DNA of 10,304 bases from UHGV virus genome UHGV-1714029; one strand, 5' to 3'. The position numbers and the translations under genes are program-made. The notes under the pieces were generated by a model. That model searched no databases, had not been told where the DNA came from, and was given only the letters and a program-made list of their open reading frames with translations. This DNA is from a virus. Positions 1 to 8,993 of this stretch are shown in pieces (the first letter of the stretch is position 1; every line of letters starts with the position of its first letter).

Positions 1-74
1 ATGAAGTGAACGGTATTTCCCGCGTGGTGTATGACATCAGCGGCAAGCCGCCAGCGACTATTGAGTGGGAATGA
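1..74 (+). CDS. guaA: GMP synthase C-terminal end (host gene, 5' part outside window)
   Basis: Frame 3 translates to EVNGISRVVYDISGKPPATIEWE followed by TGA at 72-74; I recognise this as the conserved C-terminal tail of enterobacterial GuaA. An intrinsic terminator follows. Confidence 0.75.
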   Translation, partial: EVNGISRVVYDISGKPPATIEWE

Positions 75-122
75 TTAACAGCTAACTCATAGCAAGTCAT
101 TCCTATTCAGATGCTAATTCAA

Positions 123-153
123 CCCTCTGTTTTTACAGGGGGTTTTTGTTTTT
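123..153 (+). terminator. Rho-independent terminator downstream of guaA
   Basis: Stem CCCTCTG (123-129) pairs with CAGGGGG (136-142) with one G-U wobble, 6-nt loop, then TTTTTGTTTTT. Confidence 0.6.
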
Positions 154-202
154 ATGTATTCATTTCTATTCACTCTATACCATATTTTTCGGCGGTACAG
201 GT

Positions 203-238
203 GACGGTATTACCTTAAAGGTATACTCTCATACCGTC
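203..238. promoter_or_regulatory. Nested dyad-symmetry element upstream of int, containing an operator-like TTACC-N5-GGTAT site
   Basis: 8-bp inverted repeat GACGGTAT (203-210) / ATACCGTC (231-238) encloses TTACC-ttaaa-GGTAT (210-224), a 9/10 match to the palindrome found at the other phage promoters. Confidence 0.35.
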
Positions 239-266
239 ATGAAAATGGTTTCTATACGGGTGAATT

Positions 267-1517
267 GTGCTTACCGATACAAAATTAAAAAACCTCAAGC
301 CGCAGGACAAACTATACAAAGTCTCCGATCGTGACGGGCTGTATGTAGCTGTGCTTACGTCCGGTACGGTCTCGTTTCGCTATGACTACCGTATCAACGG
401 TCGCCGCGAAACACTGGTAATCGGGCAGTATGGGCGTGACGGTATCAGCCTGGCAGAAGCGCGGGAAGAACTGATTGCTGCAAAGAAGCTTCTTAAAGCA
501 GGCCAGTCGCCGGCTGCGGCTAAACGTGACGGTATCAAAAAGATTCGTGGTGCCGAGACGTTTGCGGTACATACCGACAGTTATATGAAACACGTCATCC
601 TGGCTGACAGTACCCGCGCAATGAAGCAGGCGGTGATCGACCGTGACATATTTCCGGTTCTTGGCAACAAAATGATGGCTGAAATTACCACATTGATGGT
701 TCGTGATTTGTGTGACCGGATTGTCGAACGCGGTGGTCGGGCAACAGCAGTACAGGCCAGGGAAATCATCAGCAGCGTATACCGTTACGCCAATGACCGT
801 GGTCATGGTTTGTTTAATCCTGCGGCTGACATTAAACCTTCGTCTATCGCCATATTTAAACCACGAGAGCGAACACTGACACCAGAAGAAATTGGCCTGT
901 TCTTCCGTACGCTGGATGCCATTGGTGCTATGGGCACTATGAAAATGGCTTTAAAGCTGGTGCTTATCACTATGGTTCGTAAAGGCGAATTCACCAATGC
1001 AACGTGGGATGAAATAGATTTTAAAAAATGGACATGGACAATTCCTTCAGACCGCATGAAGGGAAGCCGGGCGCACGTTATTTACCTGCCTAAACAGGCA
1101 CAGGATATATTGGTTGGGTTGCAGATGTGCGCTGGTGGAAGTGAATATCTGGTTCCTGGTCGTTACAATTTCCGGAAGCCATTATCTAATGCCGCGCTGA
1201 ACTCTCTGATCGACAGAACGGTGAAAATAATAAATGAAGATGGTGAGCATATTCAGGGCTTCACCGTACACGATATGCGCCGTACAGCCAGTACGTTGTT
1301 GCATGAGGCTGGTTATCCTTCAGACTGGATTGAAAAGGCTCTGGCACATGAGCAGAAAGGTGTGCGCGCCGTATATAACAAAGCGGAATACGCCAGACAG
1401 CGCGCCTACATGTTGCAGCAGTGGGCCGATATGATCGATTCCTGGATTGACGGGGAGCATACGGATCTGATTCCGTTCTCCCCGTCGAAGTTTGAGAAGT
1501 GGATGGCGGGGGAATAA
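267..1517 (+). CDS. int: Tyrosine site-specific integrase (P4/IntS-like phage integrase)
   Basis: GTG start at 267. N-terminus LTDTKLKNLKPQDKLYKVSDRDGLYVAV is typical of the integrase arm-binding domain; C-terminal catalytic region has HDMRRTASTLLHEAG (H-x-x-R) and a downstream Tyr (VYNKAEY). 416 aa. Confidence 0.9.
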   Translation: MLTDTKLKNLKPQDKLYKVSDRDGLYVAVLTSGTVSFRYDYRINGRRETLVIGQYGRDGISLAEAREELIAAKKLLKAGQSPAAAKRDGIKKIRGAETFAVHTDSYMKHVILADSTRAMKQAVIDRDIFPVLGNKMMAEITTLMVRDLCDRIVERGGRATAVQAREIISSVYRYANDRGHGLFNPAADIKPSSIAIFKPRERTLTPEEIGLFFRTLDAIGAMGTMKMALKLVLITMVRKGEFTNATWDEIDFKKWTWTIPSDRMKGSRAHVIYLPKQAQDILVGLQMCAGGSEYLVPGRYNFRKPLSNAALNSLIDRTVKIINEDGEHIQGFTVHDMRRTASTLLHEAGYPSDWIEKALAHEQKGVRAVYNKAEYARQRAYMLQQWADMIDSWIDGEHTDLIPFSPSKFEKWMAGE

Positions 1518-1520
1518 CGT

Positions 1521-1715
1521 TTAATTATTCTGCTGATTTTCTTCCATCTCGGCTTCTGCTGCCAGTGATTCAATTTTATCTGTGAATATTGCTGACAGTG
1601 TTGCAAATTCAGCATCAGTGACAGCGGGAATTGGAACAAACCTGATCCCGCTGTGTGCAAGCATGTTTGCAGTTTCAAGGCATTTCCTTAAATCTGCTGG
1701 TGATGCCCTGTTCAT
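1521..1715 (-). CDS. Hypothetical small acidic protein (64 aa), last gene of leftward operon
   Basis: ATG at 1715-1713 overlaps the methyltransferase TGA stop (ATGA coupling). Protein MNRASPADLRKCLETANMLAHSGIRFVPIPAVTDAEF... with acidic C-terminus. The longer 104-aa form in the ORF track would overlap the methyltransferase by about 120 nt. Confidence 0.45.
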   Translation of the reverse strand: MNRASPADLRKCLETANMLAHSGIRFVPIPAVTDAEFATLSAIFTDKIESLAAEAEMEENQQNN

Positions 1716-2362
1716 GCTGCACGCTCCCGCCCCTGGTTGTCTGTTGGTGACAGCGGAGAATTGCTGAATGCATTTGTTAATCCGCCAATATCCAACGCGT
1801 ATCCAGGGTGTAGTTGCACTGCCGGGTCTTCGCACTGATTACCCCAAACATCGAAGCCATGAGACGACTGGCGGGCGAACAGTTCAATGCGAGAAACATC
1901 GCCTAACAATTGCACAAGTTTTTCACGAACGACATCTGGTTTTCTTGAATGCTCAAGCCGCGGTGCGGTAAATGATTGAACGATCCCTGCATTAATGCGC
2001 GGAGGTAGTTTTCCCTTTACTGCAAACAGGCAATATTCACTATTTGCGCGAGTCATGTGTCCCATACCCATAACCAGTTTATCTGGTTGTCGACTACCAC
2101 ATTTTATCCACGTGAAGCCCTTCATGGTCATCAGACGGAATCCCCAGGCTTCAACAACTTTTAGCGCTTCGAGTGGTTGTGTTGGCACCCACCACATTGC
2201 CAACAGACAGTTTTCATCGGCCAAATCCCACACAGGAAGGCGGCAGATATCCAGCACACTCATAACCGGATATTTAAAACCGGCACCGCGATTACCATCT
2301 GCGGCTTTGTCCCGGTATACCCAGGGGGGATCTGCATAGATTAGTGTGTATTTCTTAGTCAT
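1712..2362 (-). CDS. MT-A70 family DNA N6-adenine methyltransferase (orphan, phage-encoded)
   Basis: Catalytic motif DPPW in YTLIYADPPWVY, plus downstream motifs (LAMWWVP, EAWGF, EHSRKP, RIELFAR). ATG at 2362 is preceded by GGTGG; the ORF-track GTG at 2374 is a less likely start. Confidence 0.85.
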   Translation of the reverse strand: MTKKYTLIYADPPWVYRDKAADGNRGAGFKYPVMSVLDICRLPVWDLADENCLLAMWWVPTQPLEALKVVEAWGFRLMTMKGFTWIKCGSRQPDKLVMGMGHMTRANSEYCLFAVKGKLPPRINAGIVQSFTAPRLEHSRKPDVVREKLVQLLGDVSRIELFARQSSHGFDVWGNQCEDPAVQLHPGYALDIGGLTNAFSNSPLSPTDNQGRERAA

Positions 2363-2654
2363 AAACCACCCCACAACATCCTATGCCGCTATAGTCGCCA
2401 CGGCGAAGGCCGTTACCTTTTGTGATACATTGGTCCCTGCGAACCGCGATCCTTGCACGCTCAACATCACCAGAAGCAACATCCATACACTGAAGCCAAA
2501 GGTGGGCGGCAATGCGGAACTGCCCTTTTTTCTCTCTTTCAATCGCGCGTTTTTCGATCTCTATCGCCGCAGGAGTAACGGCAACAACCTTTGAAGGGCT
2601 GCGCATTGAAACCTTGTTCATGTGATATTTTTCAAGTCGGCTTAACTTTCTCAC
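2355..2654 (-). CDS. Hypothetical protein, translationally coupled to the methyltransferase
   Basis: ORF ends ...GVVYD with TAA overlapping the methyltransferase ATG (ATGACTAA). Start is uncertain: GTG 2654 with an AGAGGG SD 9 nt upstream, or internal ATG at 2621 or 2606. No recognisable domain. Confidence 0.55.
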   Translation of the reverse strand: MRKLSRLEKYHMNKVSMRSPSKVVAVTPAAIEIEKRAIEREKKGQFRIAAHLWLQCMDVASGDVERARIAVRRDQCITKGNGLRRGDYSGIGCCGVVYD

Positions 2655-2710
2655 TTAATCCAACCCTCTCTGAAAATTAATGCCAGCAGATAAAGCCATG
2701 CTGAAACAGA

Positions 2711-2736
2711 GGTCAGGAATAAGTACCATCCTGACC
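2711..2736 (-). terminator. Hairpin downstream of the AlpA-like gene, possible weak terminator or attenuator
   Basis: Perfect 8-bp inverted repeat GGTCAGGA (2711-2718) / TCCTGACC (2729-2736) with 10-nt loop. On the minus-strand transcript it is followed by UCUGUUUC, a weak U-tract. Confidence 0.25.
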
Positions 2737-2763
2737 ATTTGCTCCAGTGCCTTAGCAGCACAC

Positions 2764-3012
2764 TCATGCCGCGTTGCTCACAGGACGATATACACGTTGC
2801 TGAACAGGAGGTTTTTTACCCTGGAACTCTGCCGGGCTTGCTGCCTGACGTTCATCAAGCCAACGCTCAACTTCGTCACGGTTCCATGCGCAGCGTTTGT
2901 CAGTGATATACCAGCGTTTAGGAAATTCACCTGCGCGCTCCATACGGTCGATAGTGCTCCATGACAGTGGCACCACCGCCAGGAGTTCCTTCTTACCTAA
3001 TGCACCTTTCAT
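2764..3012 (-). CDS. AlpA-family helix-turn-helix regulator / excisionase-like protein
   Basis: 82 aa. LLAVVPLSWSTIDRMERAGEFPKRWYITDKRCAWNRDEVERWLDE matches the AlpA/Vis-type winged-HTH pattern. SD AGAGAGG sits 5-6 nt upstream of ATG 3012. Confidence 0.75.
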   Translation of the reverse strand: MKGALGKKELLAVVPLSWSTIDRMERAGEFPKRWYITDKRCAWNRDEVERWLDERQAASPAEFQGKKPPVQQRVYRPVSNAA

Positions 3013-3034
3013 AAATACCTCTCTTGGTTGCAGT

Positions 3035-3053
3035 GCGGCGCGTGTGGCGCCGC
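3035..3053 (-). other. GC-only hairpin between recT stop and the AlpA-like start
   Basis: GCGGCGC (3035-3041) and GCGCCGC (3047-3053) form a perfect 7-bp stem with a 5-nt loop. No U-tract on either strand. Confidence 0.4.
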
Positions 3054-3061
3054 GGTGGTGG

Positions 3062-4084
3062 TTACTCGAATTCTGGACGCATATCGTTAAGCGTCATCAT
3101 GAATTTTTGGTGATATTCATCACCGAGCTTGTCAGCCATGGTGTTAATTTCATTTTCAGCGCGCTTGAACATCGTTTTTGCATCTTCAGCAGATGGATCC
3201 AGGCTATTAAGTATCGCGATGATATATTCTCGAGCTTCTTCTCGTTCTGAATCTGAAATTGGCGATAGGTGTTGACGCTCATCGTCAACTACGGAATATT
3301 CACCAGTGATAACAGCTGCGTTATCTTGGCTAAGTCCAGCTTCAGCGCGCTCATCCATAACAACAGCCTTCTGCATTTCAATAGAAACAGGAAGATATTT
3401 GAACAGTCGGCGAATTACTGTTTTTTTAGCCATCTCATCGAAGTGATCAACCCATGGGCCACTGCTACCGGCTTTGCTCAGTGCACGAACTTTCTCAACG
3501 TCTGCCCGGCTCATAACTTCAAATTGGACACCGCCATCTTTCAGTCGGGCAACGGCGTAAACGTGCGTTAGTTCTCCGCGGTCACCTGTTTCGCAAGGTA
3601 AATGCTCGAGCGTTTCTTCCAGGCCGTATGAGTAGCTGAATTTGTCGTTTGTATGTACGGTACGAGCCGAGATGCTCAGGATCTGCCCTGAGCGGCGGGC
3701 AAGGTCAATCATTCCGCGATAGCCGATAATCAGCTGTGCTTCTGTAGATACGGTTTCCCATCTTCCATTTACTTTCTGGCGTTTGTCGAACGGTATCAGG
3801 TAAGCGTGTCCAAGAGCTCCGCCTGGTTCAAGACCCAATTGGGCACATTGCATAATTGCCCCCAGGAAGCTGGCTTGGTCGCATGATGCAAGTTTTGGAA
3901 CCTTTCGGATCTCTGTGGTTGCTATGCGCGCCAGACGGTCTGCTGTCATGTGCTTTGGAAGTGCCAAAGCCATCTGAGCTTTAATTTTTGGGTCTGCCAG
4001 AAGTCCGGCCAGAGTTGTTGGTTTCTCATTATGATGTGCAACTTGGTTACCGGTAGCCGCTGCCTTAAGTGCATTGATAGACAT
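3062..4084 (-). CDS. recT: RecT family single-strand annealing recombinase
   Basis: 340 aa. Strong resemblance to RecT across the core (IATTEIRKVP, GAIMQCAQLGLEPG, GHAYLIPF, IIGYRGMIDLARRSGQ, THVYAVARLKDGG, EMAKKTVIRRLFKYLPVSIE). Strong SD AAGGAG before ATG 4084. Confidence 0.92.
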   Translation of the reverse strand: MSINALKAAATGNQVAHHNEKPTTLAGLLADPKIKAQMALALPKHMTADRLARIATTEIRKVPKLASCDQASFLGAIMQCAQLGLEPGGALGHAYLIPFDKRQKVNGRWETVSTEAQLIIGYRGMIDLARRSGQILSISARTVHTNDKFSYSYGLEETLEHLPCETGDRGELTHVYAVARLKDGGVQFEVMSRADVEKVRALSKAGSSGPWVDHFDEMAKKTVIRRLFKYLPVSIEMQKAVVMDERAEAGLSQDNAAVITGEYSVVDDERQHLSPISDSEREEAREYIIAILNSLDPSAEDAKTMFKRAENEINTMADKLGDEYHQKFMMTLNDMRPEFE

Positions 4085-5463: not shown

Positions 5464-5540
5464 TTACCGTTGAGGTAATGATTATGCGTATTTGGTTTGA
5501 TGTCAATAGATATGAGTTAAAAAAATTACCCATAAGGTAA
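5464..5540 (-). promoter_or_regulatory. Leftward early promoter region with two operator palindromes (OL-like)
   Basis: Perfect TTACC-N5-GGTAA at 5464-5478 and 5526-5540, flanking a perfect minus-strand -35 hexamer TTGACA (5506-5501). A -10-like CATAAT / TAATCA lies 14-16 nt downstream, overlapping the 5464 site. Confidence 0.5.
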
Positions 5541-5550
5541 TCTTGATGGC

Positions 5551-5577
5551 AATAAAAAAGCCGCCATGAGGCGGCTT
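5551..5577 (-). terminator. Rho-independent terminator of the repressor-like gene
   Basis: Minus-strand transcript reads AGCCGCC-UCAU-GGCGGCU followed by UUUUUUAUU, about 20 nt after the TAA stop at 5600-5598. Confidence 0.65.
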
Positions 5578-6933: not shown

Positions 6934-7749
6934 ATGAGCAGACATGCAACAGATTGGGCCTGGGAGACAGATCCAGGTAGCTCGTCATTAAAGCTCATAC
7001 TGCTCTCGATGGCTGACAGAGCCGATGAATATAACCTCTGCTACCCCAGCATAGAACGCCTCGTTAAAGACACTTGCCTGAATAAAAAAACCGTGCAGGC
7101 CGGGCTTATATCGCTCATGAAAATGGGTCTTATTTCAGATACCGGAGAGAGAAAGGGGGCGACGAAAAGAGTACGGGTTTTCTCTCTTAATATAACCAAA
7201 AACGGGAACATTAAAGGCGACCGGGAGGGGGGTAATGAACCCGAAAACGGTAATGAACCCGAAAACGGGAATATACCCAAAAACGGGATGTTGAATGATC
7301 CCAAAAACGGGATGTTGAATGATCCCAAAAACGGGATCCAGAACCAGTCATATAACCAGTCATTTAACCAAGAGAGGGAGAGCAGGACAAAAAACGGGGA
7401 TTCTGTGCATCATGACCCCGGCGCAAACAACGCCGTGATGAATAACTTTGTTCCTCCTGGTGGGCCAGGGCAATTAGGCAAATTTGTCATGCATGAACAA
7501 TGGCAACCATCAGATGACTTTCTTCGGAAAAGCTCATTGCAGGGGATCTACCTGGACAGTCTGCCAACGGCACAGGAACTTGCAGAGTTCAGAATTTACT
7601 GGATGGCTGAGGGTAAGGCATACCATCAGGCACAGTGGGAGCAGAAGCTGGCAAGGCGGCTGCAGATTAGCAGACAGAAGCAATCAACATTATCTGATAA
7701 CAACGTTCCGCACTGGAACAGCCCTGAAGCATGGGAGGATTTCTTGTGA
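6934..7749 (+). CDS. Replication initiator, lambda O-like (N-terminal HTH domain, iteron-encoded low-complexity linker)
   Basis: N-terminus DWAWETDPGSSSLKLILLSMADRADEYNLCYPSIERLVKDTCLNKKTVQAGLISLMKMGLI is a replication-protein HTH. Middle NGNEPENGNEPENGNIPKNGMLNDPKNGMLNDPKNG is encoded by tandem DNA iterons. TGA stop overlaps the P-like GTG. Confidence 0.8.
   Translation: MSRHATDWAWETDPGSSSLKLILLSMADRADEYNLCYPSIERLVKDTCLNKKTVQAGLISLMKMGLISDTGERKGATKRVRVFSLNITKNGNIKGDREGGNEPENGNEPENGNIPKNGMLNDPKNGMLNDPKNGIQNQSYNQSFNQERESRTKNGDSVHHDPGANNAVMNNFVPPGGPGQLGKFVMHEQWQPSDDFLRKSSLQGIYLDSLPTAQELAEFRIYWMAEGKAYHQAQWEQKLARRLQISRQKQSTLSDNNVPHWNSPEAWEDFL
7196..7399. repeat. Iteron array / probable origin of replication embedded in the O-like gene
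   Basis: Seven copies of CC(C)-R-AAAACGGG: a tandem block 7231-7332 with unit lengths 18, 18, 18, 24, 24 bp, plus outliers at 7196-7206 and 7389-7399. Each has short dyad symmetry (CCCG-AAAA-CGGG), like the lambda ori iterons. Confidence 0.7.
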
Positions 7750-8648: not shown

Positions 8649-8993
8649 ATGAGAAAACAGATACAGGCTCTTGGTCGACTCAAAACAGGCCAGATGAACA
8701 AAACAGAATCTGCGTATTGCCAGCACCTTGAGCTGCGTAAACGTGCAGGAGAAATCGTCTGGTATCGATTTGAGGGTATCAAGCTGCGGTTAGCTGACAA
8801 CACGTTCTATACGCCCGATTTTGCTGTGATGCTCGCCACCGGCGAGATGGAACTGCACGAAGTGAAAGGTTTCTGGAGCGACGACGCCAGGGTGAAAACC
8901 AAAGTCGCCGCAGATCAGTATCCGTTCCGAATCATCGGGGTAACGGTTAAACCAAAGAAAGCAGGTGGTGGCTGGAACATCGAAAAGTTCTGA
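8649..8993 (+). CDS. DUF1064-like phage protein with PD-(D/E)xK nuclease-like motifs
   Basis: 114 aa. YTPDF followed by ELHEVKG fits a PD-(D/E)xK core (D ... E-x-K). This family is typically found next to phage replication genes. Confidence 0.7.
   Translation: MRKQIQALGRLKTGQMNKTESAYCQHLELRKRAGEIVWYRFEGIKLRLADNTFYTPDFAVMLATGEMELHEVKGFWSDDARVKTKVAADQYPFRIIGVTVKPKKAGGGWNIEKF

Follow-up and report, generated by a model that had tools for sequence, protein, structure and literature searches.

Three small minus-strand genes at positions 1521-2654 of a 10,304-nucleotide stretch of the virus genome UHGV-1714029 (the window, by which we mean this whole stretch) stand at the end of the early-left operon of a prophage of the phiV10/epsilon15 type (Uetakevirus), integrated beside guaA. 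In the order of transcription they encode a 99-residue PerC-like protein, an MT-A70 family adenine methyltransferase and a 64-residue DUF1382 protein homologous to Orf63 of phage lambda, and the methyltransferase gene overlaps both of its neighbors. A first-pass annotation, made from the sequence alone, had read this arrangement as a translationally coupled cassette of stoichiometric partners. The explanation that we favor, with a probability of roughly 0.6, is that these are three separate accessory genes at the end of an operon: a DNA-methylating enzyme, an independent Orf63 homologue, and a PerC-like regulator of the modification module. The overlaps are ordinary phage gene packing and no evidence of partnership, because overlap is the default here, occurs with any neighbor, and the supposed partners are not co-inherited.

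Family Assignment of the Three Gene Products

The methyltransferase matches PF05063 with 78.1 bits against a cut-off of 23.9 (E=9.7e-22), residues 5-176 covering model positions 1-172 of 172, and carries the DPPW catalytic motif at residues 11-14. PADLOC returns the generic MTase_II category (E=7.4e-77) and gives no match for either of the two small proteins. Matches among solved structures include the ciliate MTA1-complex chains 7f4r/7f4l, labeled “MT-a70 family protein” (E=6e-13), and METTL3 (E=1.5e-6). As the first-pass annotation had stated, the enzyme is an orphan: no restriction endonuclease gene is found in the window or in relatives, the neighbors of the methyltransferase being PerC, DUF1382 and int, and membership in a type II restriction-modification system is not supported because a cognate endonuclease gene is absent beside it. 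A non-specific adenine methyltransferase of the M.EcoGII type was considered and ruled out, M.EcoGII having 349 residues and a DPPY motif as against 216 residues and DPPW.

The catalytic domain spans approximately residues 1-187 and is followed by a variable, less constrained C-terminal tail (residues 188-216), whose ratio of nonsynonymous to synonymous polymorphism (pN/pS) of 0.54 compares with 0.12 in the domain. The ending ...GCAGCATGA (“AA*”) is similar across many homologues despite other downstream genes, and the long tail is kept with DUF1382, NinI or a 124-aa unknown protein downstream and with PerC, DndB or PDDEXK_5 upstream; no covariation of the tail with the neighboring genes was seen. 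One further observation concerns a methyltransferase of Enterobacter hormaechei (P0073, L137:3001-3717), which has a divergent N-terminal half and only 60% identity overall, yet ends in the C-terminal tail of the window enzyme (…LHPGYALDIAGLTRAFGNAPMSPTDNQVRERAA), a case of mosaicism within the methyltransferase gene.

Both small proteins, in which the first-pass annotation had recognized no domain, belong to named families, profile searches giving PerC (PF06069) for the 99-aa protein and DUF1382 (PF07131) for the 64-aa protein. The PF06069 match scores 30.1 bits against a gathering threshold of 22.6, but residues 35-80 correspond to model positions 5-50 of 90 and so cover only half of the model; the phrog_868 family, “transcriptional activator”, matches over the full length (E=6.5e-62), while the ANR (AraC negative regulator) family NF033650 stays below its cut-off (23.6 bits against 32). 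The 99-aa form is supported by conservation of residues 1-99 at the protein level in epsilon15 (78.8% identity). The DUF1382 assignment is clear (105.7 bits against 27, E=1.4e-30), and the 64-aa protein is 50% identical to the Orf63 of lambda/DE3 over 62 residues and matches PDB entry 8dsb (E=5.8e-13).

An AlphaFold2 (AF2) model of the PerC-like protein built from 52 homologues has a mean predicted local distance difference test score (pLDDT) of 73.6, with helices at residues 6-18, 28-43, 46-59 and 63-80. No DNA-binding motif is evident in the model of this short form, and a fold search of the PDB gave no significant match, the best being an MIT domain (E=0.53). The tail at residues 86-99 (...DYSGIGCCGVVYD) has a pLDDT below 50 and is predicted to be disordered, and no other part of the protein is as constrained (pN/pS 0.05); a conserved and apparently disordered segment is what would be expected of a short binding motif.

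All three genes are under purifying selection, with pN/pS values of 0.13 (PerC), 0.15 (methyltransferase) and 0.16 (DUF1382) and with third codon positions changing most, as calculated from 46 colinear cassettes on IMG/VR contigs chosen for a methyltransferase identity of at least 97%. A lack of conservation of the small ORFs (open reading frames) in related prophages had been named in the first-pass annotation as an outcome that would speak against it; the two small genes are conserved.

Overlapping Junctions and Gene Partnership

Reading the sequence confirmed what the first-pass annotation had described: the DPPW motif, the three ORFs, which lie on the minus strand, and the two overlaps, ATGACTAA and ATGA. 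A Shine-Dalgarno-like run (GGGGTGG) lies just 5' of the ATGACTAA overlap. The step from tight coupling to stoichiometric partnership does not follow. Overlaps occur at about 11 of the 21 same-strand junctions of the prophage, including AlpA/38-aa ORF, 38-aa ORF/PerC, PerC/methyltransferase and methyltransferase/DUF1382, and a fourth overlapping ORF (38 aa, immediately upstream of PerC) had been missed in the first-pass annotation.

The methyltransferase, moreover, overlaps unrelated neighbors elsewhere. P22-like E. coli prophages carry a 69%-identical methyltransferase that shares 4 nt with NinB on one side and with NinD on the other; a DndB-like DGQHR protein stands between PerC and the methyltransferase of E. 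coli EC21 and overlaps the methyltransferase; the order in Enterobacter hormaechei is PerC, DUF1317, PDDEXK_5, methyltransferase and the 124-aa unknown, with PDDEXK_5 overlapping the methyltransferase; and in phage PAS61 it is a downstream NinI phosphatase that overlaps. Across the 29 of 37 species-level genome loci with a scorable upstream ORF, the upstream neighbor almost always ends within a few bases of the methyltransferase start, and these neighbors represent more than 15 Pfam families.

Neither PerC nor DUF1382 stays adjacent to the methyltransferase across relatives, as the members of an obligate, co-inherited module would. A PerC gene lies within 4 kb in about 14 of the 37 loci with a close MT-A70 homologue and is absent from that distance in about 23, and one or two genes separate PerC from the methyltransferase in all seven (7/7) Uetakevirus-like loci of other genera as well as in epsilon15, E. 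coli EC21 and Klebsiella prophages. The ATGACTAA junction sequence also joins PerC to DUF1317 (which begins MTN...) in related prophages, and for this reason the direct PerC-methyltransferase junction of the phiV10 lineage looks secondary, the apparent product of a deletion between two “ATGAC” starts.

Several variants of these junctions deserve mention. The DndB-like DGQHR protein (355 aa, L125:1457-2524, PADLOC DndB E=5.8e-38) overlaps the MT-A70 start in otherwise near-identical prophages, and DndB-like and MT-A70 genes are also paired in L010, L056 and L057 and in the Salmonella phages SPC32N and VB_ST_SPNIS2. Two apparent PerC-methyltransferase fusions were rejected as Rosetta stone evidence: P0001 (297 aa, 99% identical to the window proteins) is in frame and comes from one contig, and a change of one base within the overlap could account for its junction, …GVV-MTKK…, while P0002 is an in-frame deletion that removes half of PerC. 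A degraded prophage (L058:3600-4010) has lost everything from the first left-operon gene to the last 14 PerC codons and retains an intact methyltransferase.

Distribution of the Orf63 Homologue

Lambda Orf63 is a protein of the exo-xis region with pro-lytic effects, for which a nuclear magnetic resonance structure has been reported and which forms a homodimer (PMC10869804); its pro-lytic phenotype has been examined in lambda and Phi24B only (PMC10869804, PMC5575149). Among 80 loci selected for at least 97% identity of the methyltransferase to the window enzyme, 50 have the DUF1382 gene and 30 lack it, and it was found in none of the 37 methyltransferase loci of other species. It stands beside DUF1317, with no methyltransferase, in lambda, 933W, VT2-Sakai and BP-4795. 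DUF1382 is exchangeable and is not a specific partner of the methyltransferase, since it is missing from those 30 near-identical loci and accompanies DUF1317 in lambda and 933W.

DUF1317, the family of lambda Orf60a, follows PerC through a ATGACTAA junction in three related loci (L146:2787-2945, L137:2343-2501 and L142:2790-2948). Because DUF1317 follows PerC in these relatives and DUF1382 lies downstream here, the segment is the Uetakevirus counterpart of the lambda exo-xis region, with the methyltransferase placed inside the equivalent of the orf60a-orf63 pair.

PerC Genes in Front of Phage DNA Methyltransferases

A different picture emerges for the PerC-like gene. PerC-domain genes are strikingly often followed, in many cases with overlapping codons, by DNA methyltransferases of four Pfam families (PF05063, PF05869, PF02086 and PF00145), and the pattern is found at two genome positions and in three phage lineages (loci L135, L142-L154, L155-L189 and L190-L197, from Uetakevirus, lambdoid and SfV/ST64B/CPS-53 contexts). 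In sister Uetakevirus prophages the slot after PerC holds an MT-A70 gene, a PF05869 “Dam” gene or a C5+Dam fusion of 637-664 aa. Lambdoid prophages carry, after the replication genes, a diverged PerC subfamily that keeps the core AA..W..D..R..C and the C-terminal YSGI. Depending on the locus, the genes that come next are MT-A70 with an 8-nt overlap; phosphoadenosine phosphosulfate (PAPS) reductase, Dam and C5 methylase in series; Dam; a PAPS-reductase-Dam fusion; a D12-class Dam; or a protein with ParB and helix-turn-helix (HTH) assignments and then MT-A70. The 8-nt overlapping PerC/MT-A70 pair belongs to a lambdoid Lonsdalea prophage, and PerC/MT-A70 pairs also occur in Buttiauxella, Dryocola and Acerihabitans loci. 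The third lineage comprises SfV, ST64B, 1720a-02, Lys8385Vzw, phiSTEC1575-Stx2k and 118970_sal3, in which a PerC-domain protein of 157-174 aa is directly followed by a PF05869 methyltransferase; going by the ST64B annotation, this pair corresponds to yfdN-yfdM of the K-12 element CPS-53.

Among 35 IMG/VR loci found from a PerC alignment, a same-strand DNA methyltransferase lies downstream of PerC in 29, of which 11 overlap PerC, and none of the 35 has a methyltransferase in an equally long upstream flank (these are raw counts, which ignore the kinship of contigs). The remaining six loci, as well as Fels-1 and the N4-like Shigella phage B2, carry PerC with no adjacent methyltransferase. Searches of the literature on PerC with methyltransferases and on yfdN found nothing relevant.

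We tentatively suggest that PerC-domain proteins such as the 99-aa protein, SfV Orf40, ST64B Sb43 and K-12 YfdN could be dedicated companions of the orphan DNA methyltransferases of temperate phages, of whichever family, either controlling their expression or activity in the manner of C-proteins or Com or coupling methylation to transcription; this is a possibility that we regard as doubtful rather than probable. If it were true, the origin of the PerC/Pch virulence regulators of enteropathogenic and enterohemorrhagic E. coli (EPEC and EHEC) would lie in a phage module for the control of methylation, and the window cassette, in which PerC runs straight into the methyltransferase start, would represent that module in minimal form.

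Longer PerC-domain proteins with an extra N-terminal domain were also seen, in Buttiauxella (P0135, P0137, P0169 and P0213, 152 aa), SfV (orf40, L190:2204-2692) and ST64B (sb43, L193:1668-2192), and the extra domain gives weak, sub-threshold matches to MarR-like winged-helix models. The genes of these proteins stand immediately in front of methyltransferase genes, and this suggests that a PerC domain can act jointly with a DNA-binding domain. The ParB-HTH proteins (300-490 aa) lie between PerC-like and MT-A70 genes in several lambdoid viral contigs (L165:3805-5145, L171:3643-5118, L187:3838-5148 and L169:3796-4695 are ParB-HTH loci), and in some of these loci PerC is followed by ParB-HTH with no methyltransferase detected. 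RefSeq calls both SfV “dam” (L190:2692-3345) and the protein at L197:1992-2885 “phosphoadenosine phosphosulfate reductase”, but Pfam finds only PF05869 Dam in the former (E~1e-45), and ST64B Sb44 (L193:2192-3085), of the same length as the L197 protein, likewise has PF05869 only. PAPS-reductase domains that are fused or adjacent to Dam elsewhere (L157, L150) may be the source of the transferred name.

Proposed Mechanism and Alternative Explanations

Under the explanation that we favor, the early-left promoter, under control of the repressor, would drive transcription when the phage infects or the prophage is induced. The methyltransferase, probably a homodimer, as has been argued for beta-class enzymes (PMC7544214), would methylate adenines in phage DNA and incidentally in host DNA, which would give protection from restriction. 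We infer a DNA substrate because the corresponding slot of sister prophages holds unquestioned DNA methyltransferases (PF05869 Dam and C5+Dam fusions), and the anti-restriction or epigenetic role that the first-pass annotation had listed as a candidate stays the most likely reading of the enzyme. The Orf63 homologue would act independently as a pro-lytic developmental factor of the exo-xis type. The PerC-like protein would be a regulator tied to the DNA-modification module, for example in the expression or timing of a potentially toxic methyltransferase; this role is the most likely one, going by gene neighborhood only. That it would be a structural subunit specific to MT-A70 enzymes seems unlikely because PerC is linked to DNA-modification modules of several families.

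A number of points weigh against this explanation. The only close relative that has been studied biochemically, M.EcoPA8orf6770P (gp5) of the Shiga toxin (Stx) 2a phage PA8, has negligible activity on DNA when alone, and together with PNB-2, the product of the upstream gene, forms an approximately 1:1 complex that prefers 16S rRNA in 30S subunits (PMC10810198). A stand-alone DNA role would therefore not be safe to assume for the window enzyme, since its PA8 homologue needs an upstream partner and acts on 16S rRNA. Eukaryotic MT-A70 enzymes, too, are heteromers. PerC directly adjoins the methyltransferase in 77 of 80 E. coli-type loci, and the Lonsdalea lambdoid prophage has, in an unrelated context, the PerC/MT-A70 pair with the same 8-nt overlap; these two observations would fit a physical partnership. 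In addition, the neighborhood counts for PerC are uncorrected for contig kinship, and the promoter from which the operon is drawn was assigned by consensus scan.

The main rival explanation is a holoenzyme in which the PerC-like protein, as an analogue of PNB-2, binds the MT-A70 protein in a ratio of about 1:1, perhaps through its tail, and sets its specificity, possibly toward 16S rRNA, so that the pair tunes induction and not DNA protection. The requirement of PA8 gp5, 82% identical, for the product of an upstream, translationally coupled gene argues for it, together with the adjacency in 77 of 80 loci, the pairs in Lonsdalea, Buttiauxella, Dryocola and Acerihabitans, the strongly constrained and yet apparently disordered PerC tail, as is typical of binding motifs, and a weak, non-significant likeness of the PerC core to MIT/TPR-like protein-binding bundles. 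However, the PerC-like protein shows no similarity to PNB-2, and the methyltransferase tail differs from that of PA8 and is weakly constrained; this PerC subfamily also accompanies methyltransferases whose folds and families are unrelated (PF05869, PF02086 and PF00145), which speaks against an interface specific to MT-A70; other genes often lie between PerC and the methyltransferase, with PerC within 4 kb in only about 14 of 37 loci; and there are natural variants in which PerC is truncated or deleted and the methyltransferase is kept. We consider such a holoenzyme quite unlikely. Extending it to all three proteins, as one stoichiometric module to which the 64-aa protein would contribute a second subunit for specificity or regulation, is extremely unlikely: all three genes overlap, and the methyltransferase-DUF1382 linkage found in diverged Stx2a phages implies that the pair predates recent transfer, but DUF1382 is replaced in near-identical loci (e.g., by NinI phosphatase), missing from all 37 loci of other species and present without the methyltransferase in lambda, 933W, VT2-Sakai and BP-4795, and lambda Orf63 shows a phenotype of its own and is homodimeric in structure. 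The first-pass proposal of subunits or regulators has thus to be divided, as a functional tie of the upstream PerC protein gains some support from the PA8 complex and from the recurrent PerC-methyltransferase order, while the absence of the 64-aa protein from 30 of 80 loci speaks against it for that protein.

The opposite possibility, that the PerC-like protein has nothing to do with methylation and is a moron, a host-directed transcription factor of the PerC/Pch type that is near methyltransferases through shared accessory-gene hot spots, is also unlikely, if less so. Canonical PerC/Pch proteins activate the ler promoter of the locus of enterocyte effacement (LEE) in EPEC and EHEC, PerC-like genes do occur with no adjacent methyltransferase (Fels-1, phage B2 and the six IMG/VR loci), and genes of both types tend to lie where the nin region starts and in the accessory region next to the integrase. 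Against chance proximity stand the recurrence of the adjacency at two genome positions in three phage lineages, its survival of swaps to non-homologous methyltransferase families, often with overlapping codons, and the one-sidedness of the association, with no upstream methyltransferase in 35 loci. A regulator of the modification module, beside an independent enzyme and an independent Orf63 homologue, remains the reading that we prefer.

Genomic Context

Membership of the prophage in the Uetakevirus group is borne out by nucleotide identity and synteny with the type phages and by its integration beside guaA. DNA identity to phiV10 is approximately 98% across int, DUF1382, methyltransferase, PerC, membrane ORF, AlpA and RecT, with the order and the overlaps alike, and in the phiV10 annotation p32, p33 and p34 are DUF1382, methyltransferase and PerC. 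A prophage of E. coli 85.0412, also beside guaA, is 100% identical to the region, and RefSeq labels its three genes “DUF1382 family protein”, “MT-A70 family methyltransferase” and “PerC family transcriptional regulator”. A 1.7-kb query was matched in 566 of 5426 complete E. coli genomes, about 1 in 10. The cassette is therefore already annotated and widespread, every gene of it belongs to a named family, and the enzyme is an uncharacterized relative of one characterized enzyme.

The features of the region are collected in Table 1. A minus-strand chain of tightly packed genes runs from the candidate early-left promoter to the convergent integrase gene. No promoter or terminator was predicted between that candidate and position 1521, nor inside 1521-3012, so the three-gene cassette is probably the distal end of the operon that starts there. 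The 38-aa ORF overlaps AlpA and PerC by 4 nt each and is not called by the Prokaryotic Genome Annotation Pipeline (PGAP) in the identical E. coli record.

Table 1. Position, strand and basis of assignment of the cassette genes and of neighboring features in the window.
Feature	Position	Strand	Basis
P4-type tyrosine integrase, convergent with the cassette	267-1517	+	ORF call and annotations; prophage beside guaA
DUF1382 protein, 64 aa, lambda Orf63 homologue	1521-1715	-	PF07131
Methyltransferase stop/DUF1382 start overlap, 4 nt, ATGA	1712-1715	-	Sequence
Orphan MT-A70 family N6-adenine methyltransferase, 216 aa	1712-2362	-	PF05063
DPPW catalytic motif (motif IV), methyltransferase residues 11-14	2321-2332	-	Sequence reading
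PerC stop/methyltransferase start overlap, 8 nt, ATGACTAA	2355-2362	-	Sequence
PerC-family small protein, 99 aa, GTG start	2355-2654	-	PF06069, phrog_868
38-aa ORF, membrane protein by annotation	2651-2767	-	phiV10 p35, epsilon15 gp32
AlpA-type excisionase/regulator, upstream in the same operon	2764-3012	-	PF05930; phage/RefSeq annotations
Candidate early-left promoter, TTGACA-17-AATCAT	5478-5506	-	Consensus scan only; 3' of the repressor-gene terminator at 5558-5577

Three other observations were made in the window. The stop codons of the integrase and DUF1382 genes (1517-1521) are 3 nt apart, and no terminator-like structure is predicted there. In the right operon, a 114-aa DUF1064 protein (8649-8993, plus strand), the only nuclease-like extra of the window, has a PD...E.K-like motif (YTPDF...ELHEVKG) and is probably a phage nuclease of the resolvase type and no partner of the methyltransferase. 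A DnaT-like replication protein (6934-7749, plus strand) contains short tandem peptide repeats, GNEPENGNEPENGNIPKNGMLNDPKNGMLNDPKNG, at approximately residues 100-135.

Comparison with Known Systems

The closest known counterparts of the segment, phiV10 p32-p34 and epsilon15 gp29-gp31, differ from it in detail. PhiV10 is annotated with a RecE/RecT fusion where the window prophage has YqaJ and RecT as separate genes. In epsilon15 the PerC protein (78.8% identical) and the methyltransferase (77%) are separated by a 35-aa ORF and a gap, and the gene after the methyltransferase is the serotype-conversion repressor, where the window has DUF1382. The wider resemblance is to lambda, whose Orf63 is of similar length and likewise has its gene among the early-left accessory genes, with the recombination genes on one side and int on the other; lambda orf63, however, comes after orf60a (DUF1317) and before orf61, whereas DUF1382 here comes after the methyltransferase and is the last gene before int.

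For the PerC-methyltransferase pair, the nearest arrangements are SfV orf40-dam, ST64B sb43-sb44 and K-12 yfdN-yfdM, in which, as in the window, the PerC gene lies directly upstream of an orphan adenine methyltransferase and overlaps its start. These pairs differ in having longer PerC proteins of 162-174 aa (the N terminus of SfV Orf40 being the part with a weak, sub-threshold match to a MarR-like winged-helix model), in encoding PF05869 and not MT-A70 enzymes, and in lying in the right operon after the replication genes. Compared with the PerC/Pch proteins of EPEC/EHEC and with the ANR family, the window protein is likewise small, basic and helical and without a classical DNA-binding motif; its subfamily differs from PerC/Pch in an extra N-terminal helix and a conserved C-terminal tail containing YSGI, and its gene stands in a phage early operon beside a methyltransferase, unlike those of the virulence regulators. 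A functional analogy can be drawn to com-mom of phage Mu and to the C-protein control of restriction-modification systems, where a small regulator gene lies just upstream of, or overlaps, the gene of a DNA-modifying enzyme that is potentially toxic. Neither Com, a translational activator with a zinc finger, nor the C-proteins, which belong to the HTH class, are related to the PerC-like protein in sequence or fold. The PerC-methyltransferase pattern, which we did not find described in the literature searched, offers a lead to the function of PerC-like proteins, including PerC/Pch.

The most instructive comparison is with PA8. The gene of its methyltransferase raises spontaneous prophage induction, and the enzyme loses its function when DPPW is replaced by APPA; M.EcoGV, an enzyme from E. 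coli O104:H4 that is highly similar to it, is reported to methylate GATC when overproduced (PMC10810198). The PA8 and window enzymes are 82% identical over residues 1-187, with DPPW kept, and the gene order PNB-2, methyltransferase, DUF1382, with overlaps of the same kind and close to int/xis, is like that of the window. The upstream genes are dissimilar, PNB-2 being a 143-aa HTH-type protein (with a weak HTH_11 match only) in the place of the PerC-like protein. A homology between the two was ruled out, BLASTP giving no alignment, and PNB-2 has no similarity, either, to the N-terminal domain that the longer PerC proteins of Buttiauxella carry. The last approximately 30 residues of the two enzymes, after position 187, are unrelated, and a 27-residue C-terminal tail of the type found in E. 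coli that produces Shiga toxin (STEC) has been proposed as one that may be important for formation of the PNB-2 holoenzyme (Gong, Chakraborty and Koudelka, NAR 2024, PMC10810198). The phage backbones differ as well (Sepvirinae for PA8, Uetakevirus for the window), and rRNA activity has been shown for PA8 only. Compared with a PA8-type holoenzyme, then, the window has an orthologous catalytic subunit and neither a PNB-2 homologue nor the STEC-type tail.

Variation in the upstream gene is also seen among the Stx phages. The methyltransferase-DUF1382 pair occurs in Stx2a phages in diverged form (82% and ~51% identity), and in Stx phage 06-3462 the same methyltransferase is preceded by a further, different gene. 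In two Stx2a phages the genes in front of the same methyltransferase are unrelated (L120:2774-3004, 76 aa; L121:2648-3004, 118 aa); both products end in the identical peptide LYIDEFENAL, and about 30 nt leading up to the methyltransferase start are shared, which resembles a sharp boundary of recombination where the upstream gene has its 3' end. The window cassette provides a natural contrast to PA8, with nearly the same catalytic domain joined to another upstream gene and another tail, and it bears on how general partner dependence and rRNA targeting are among these enzymes.

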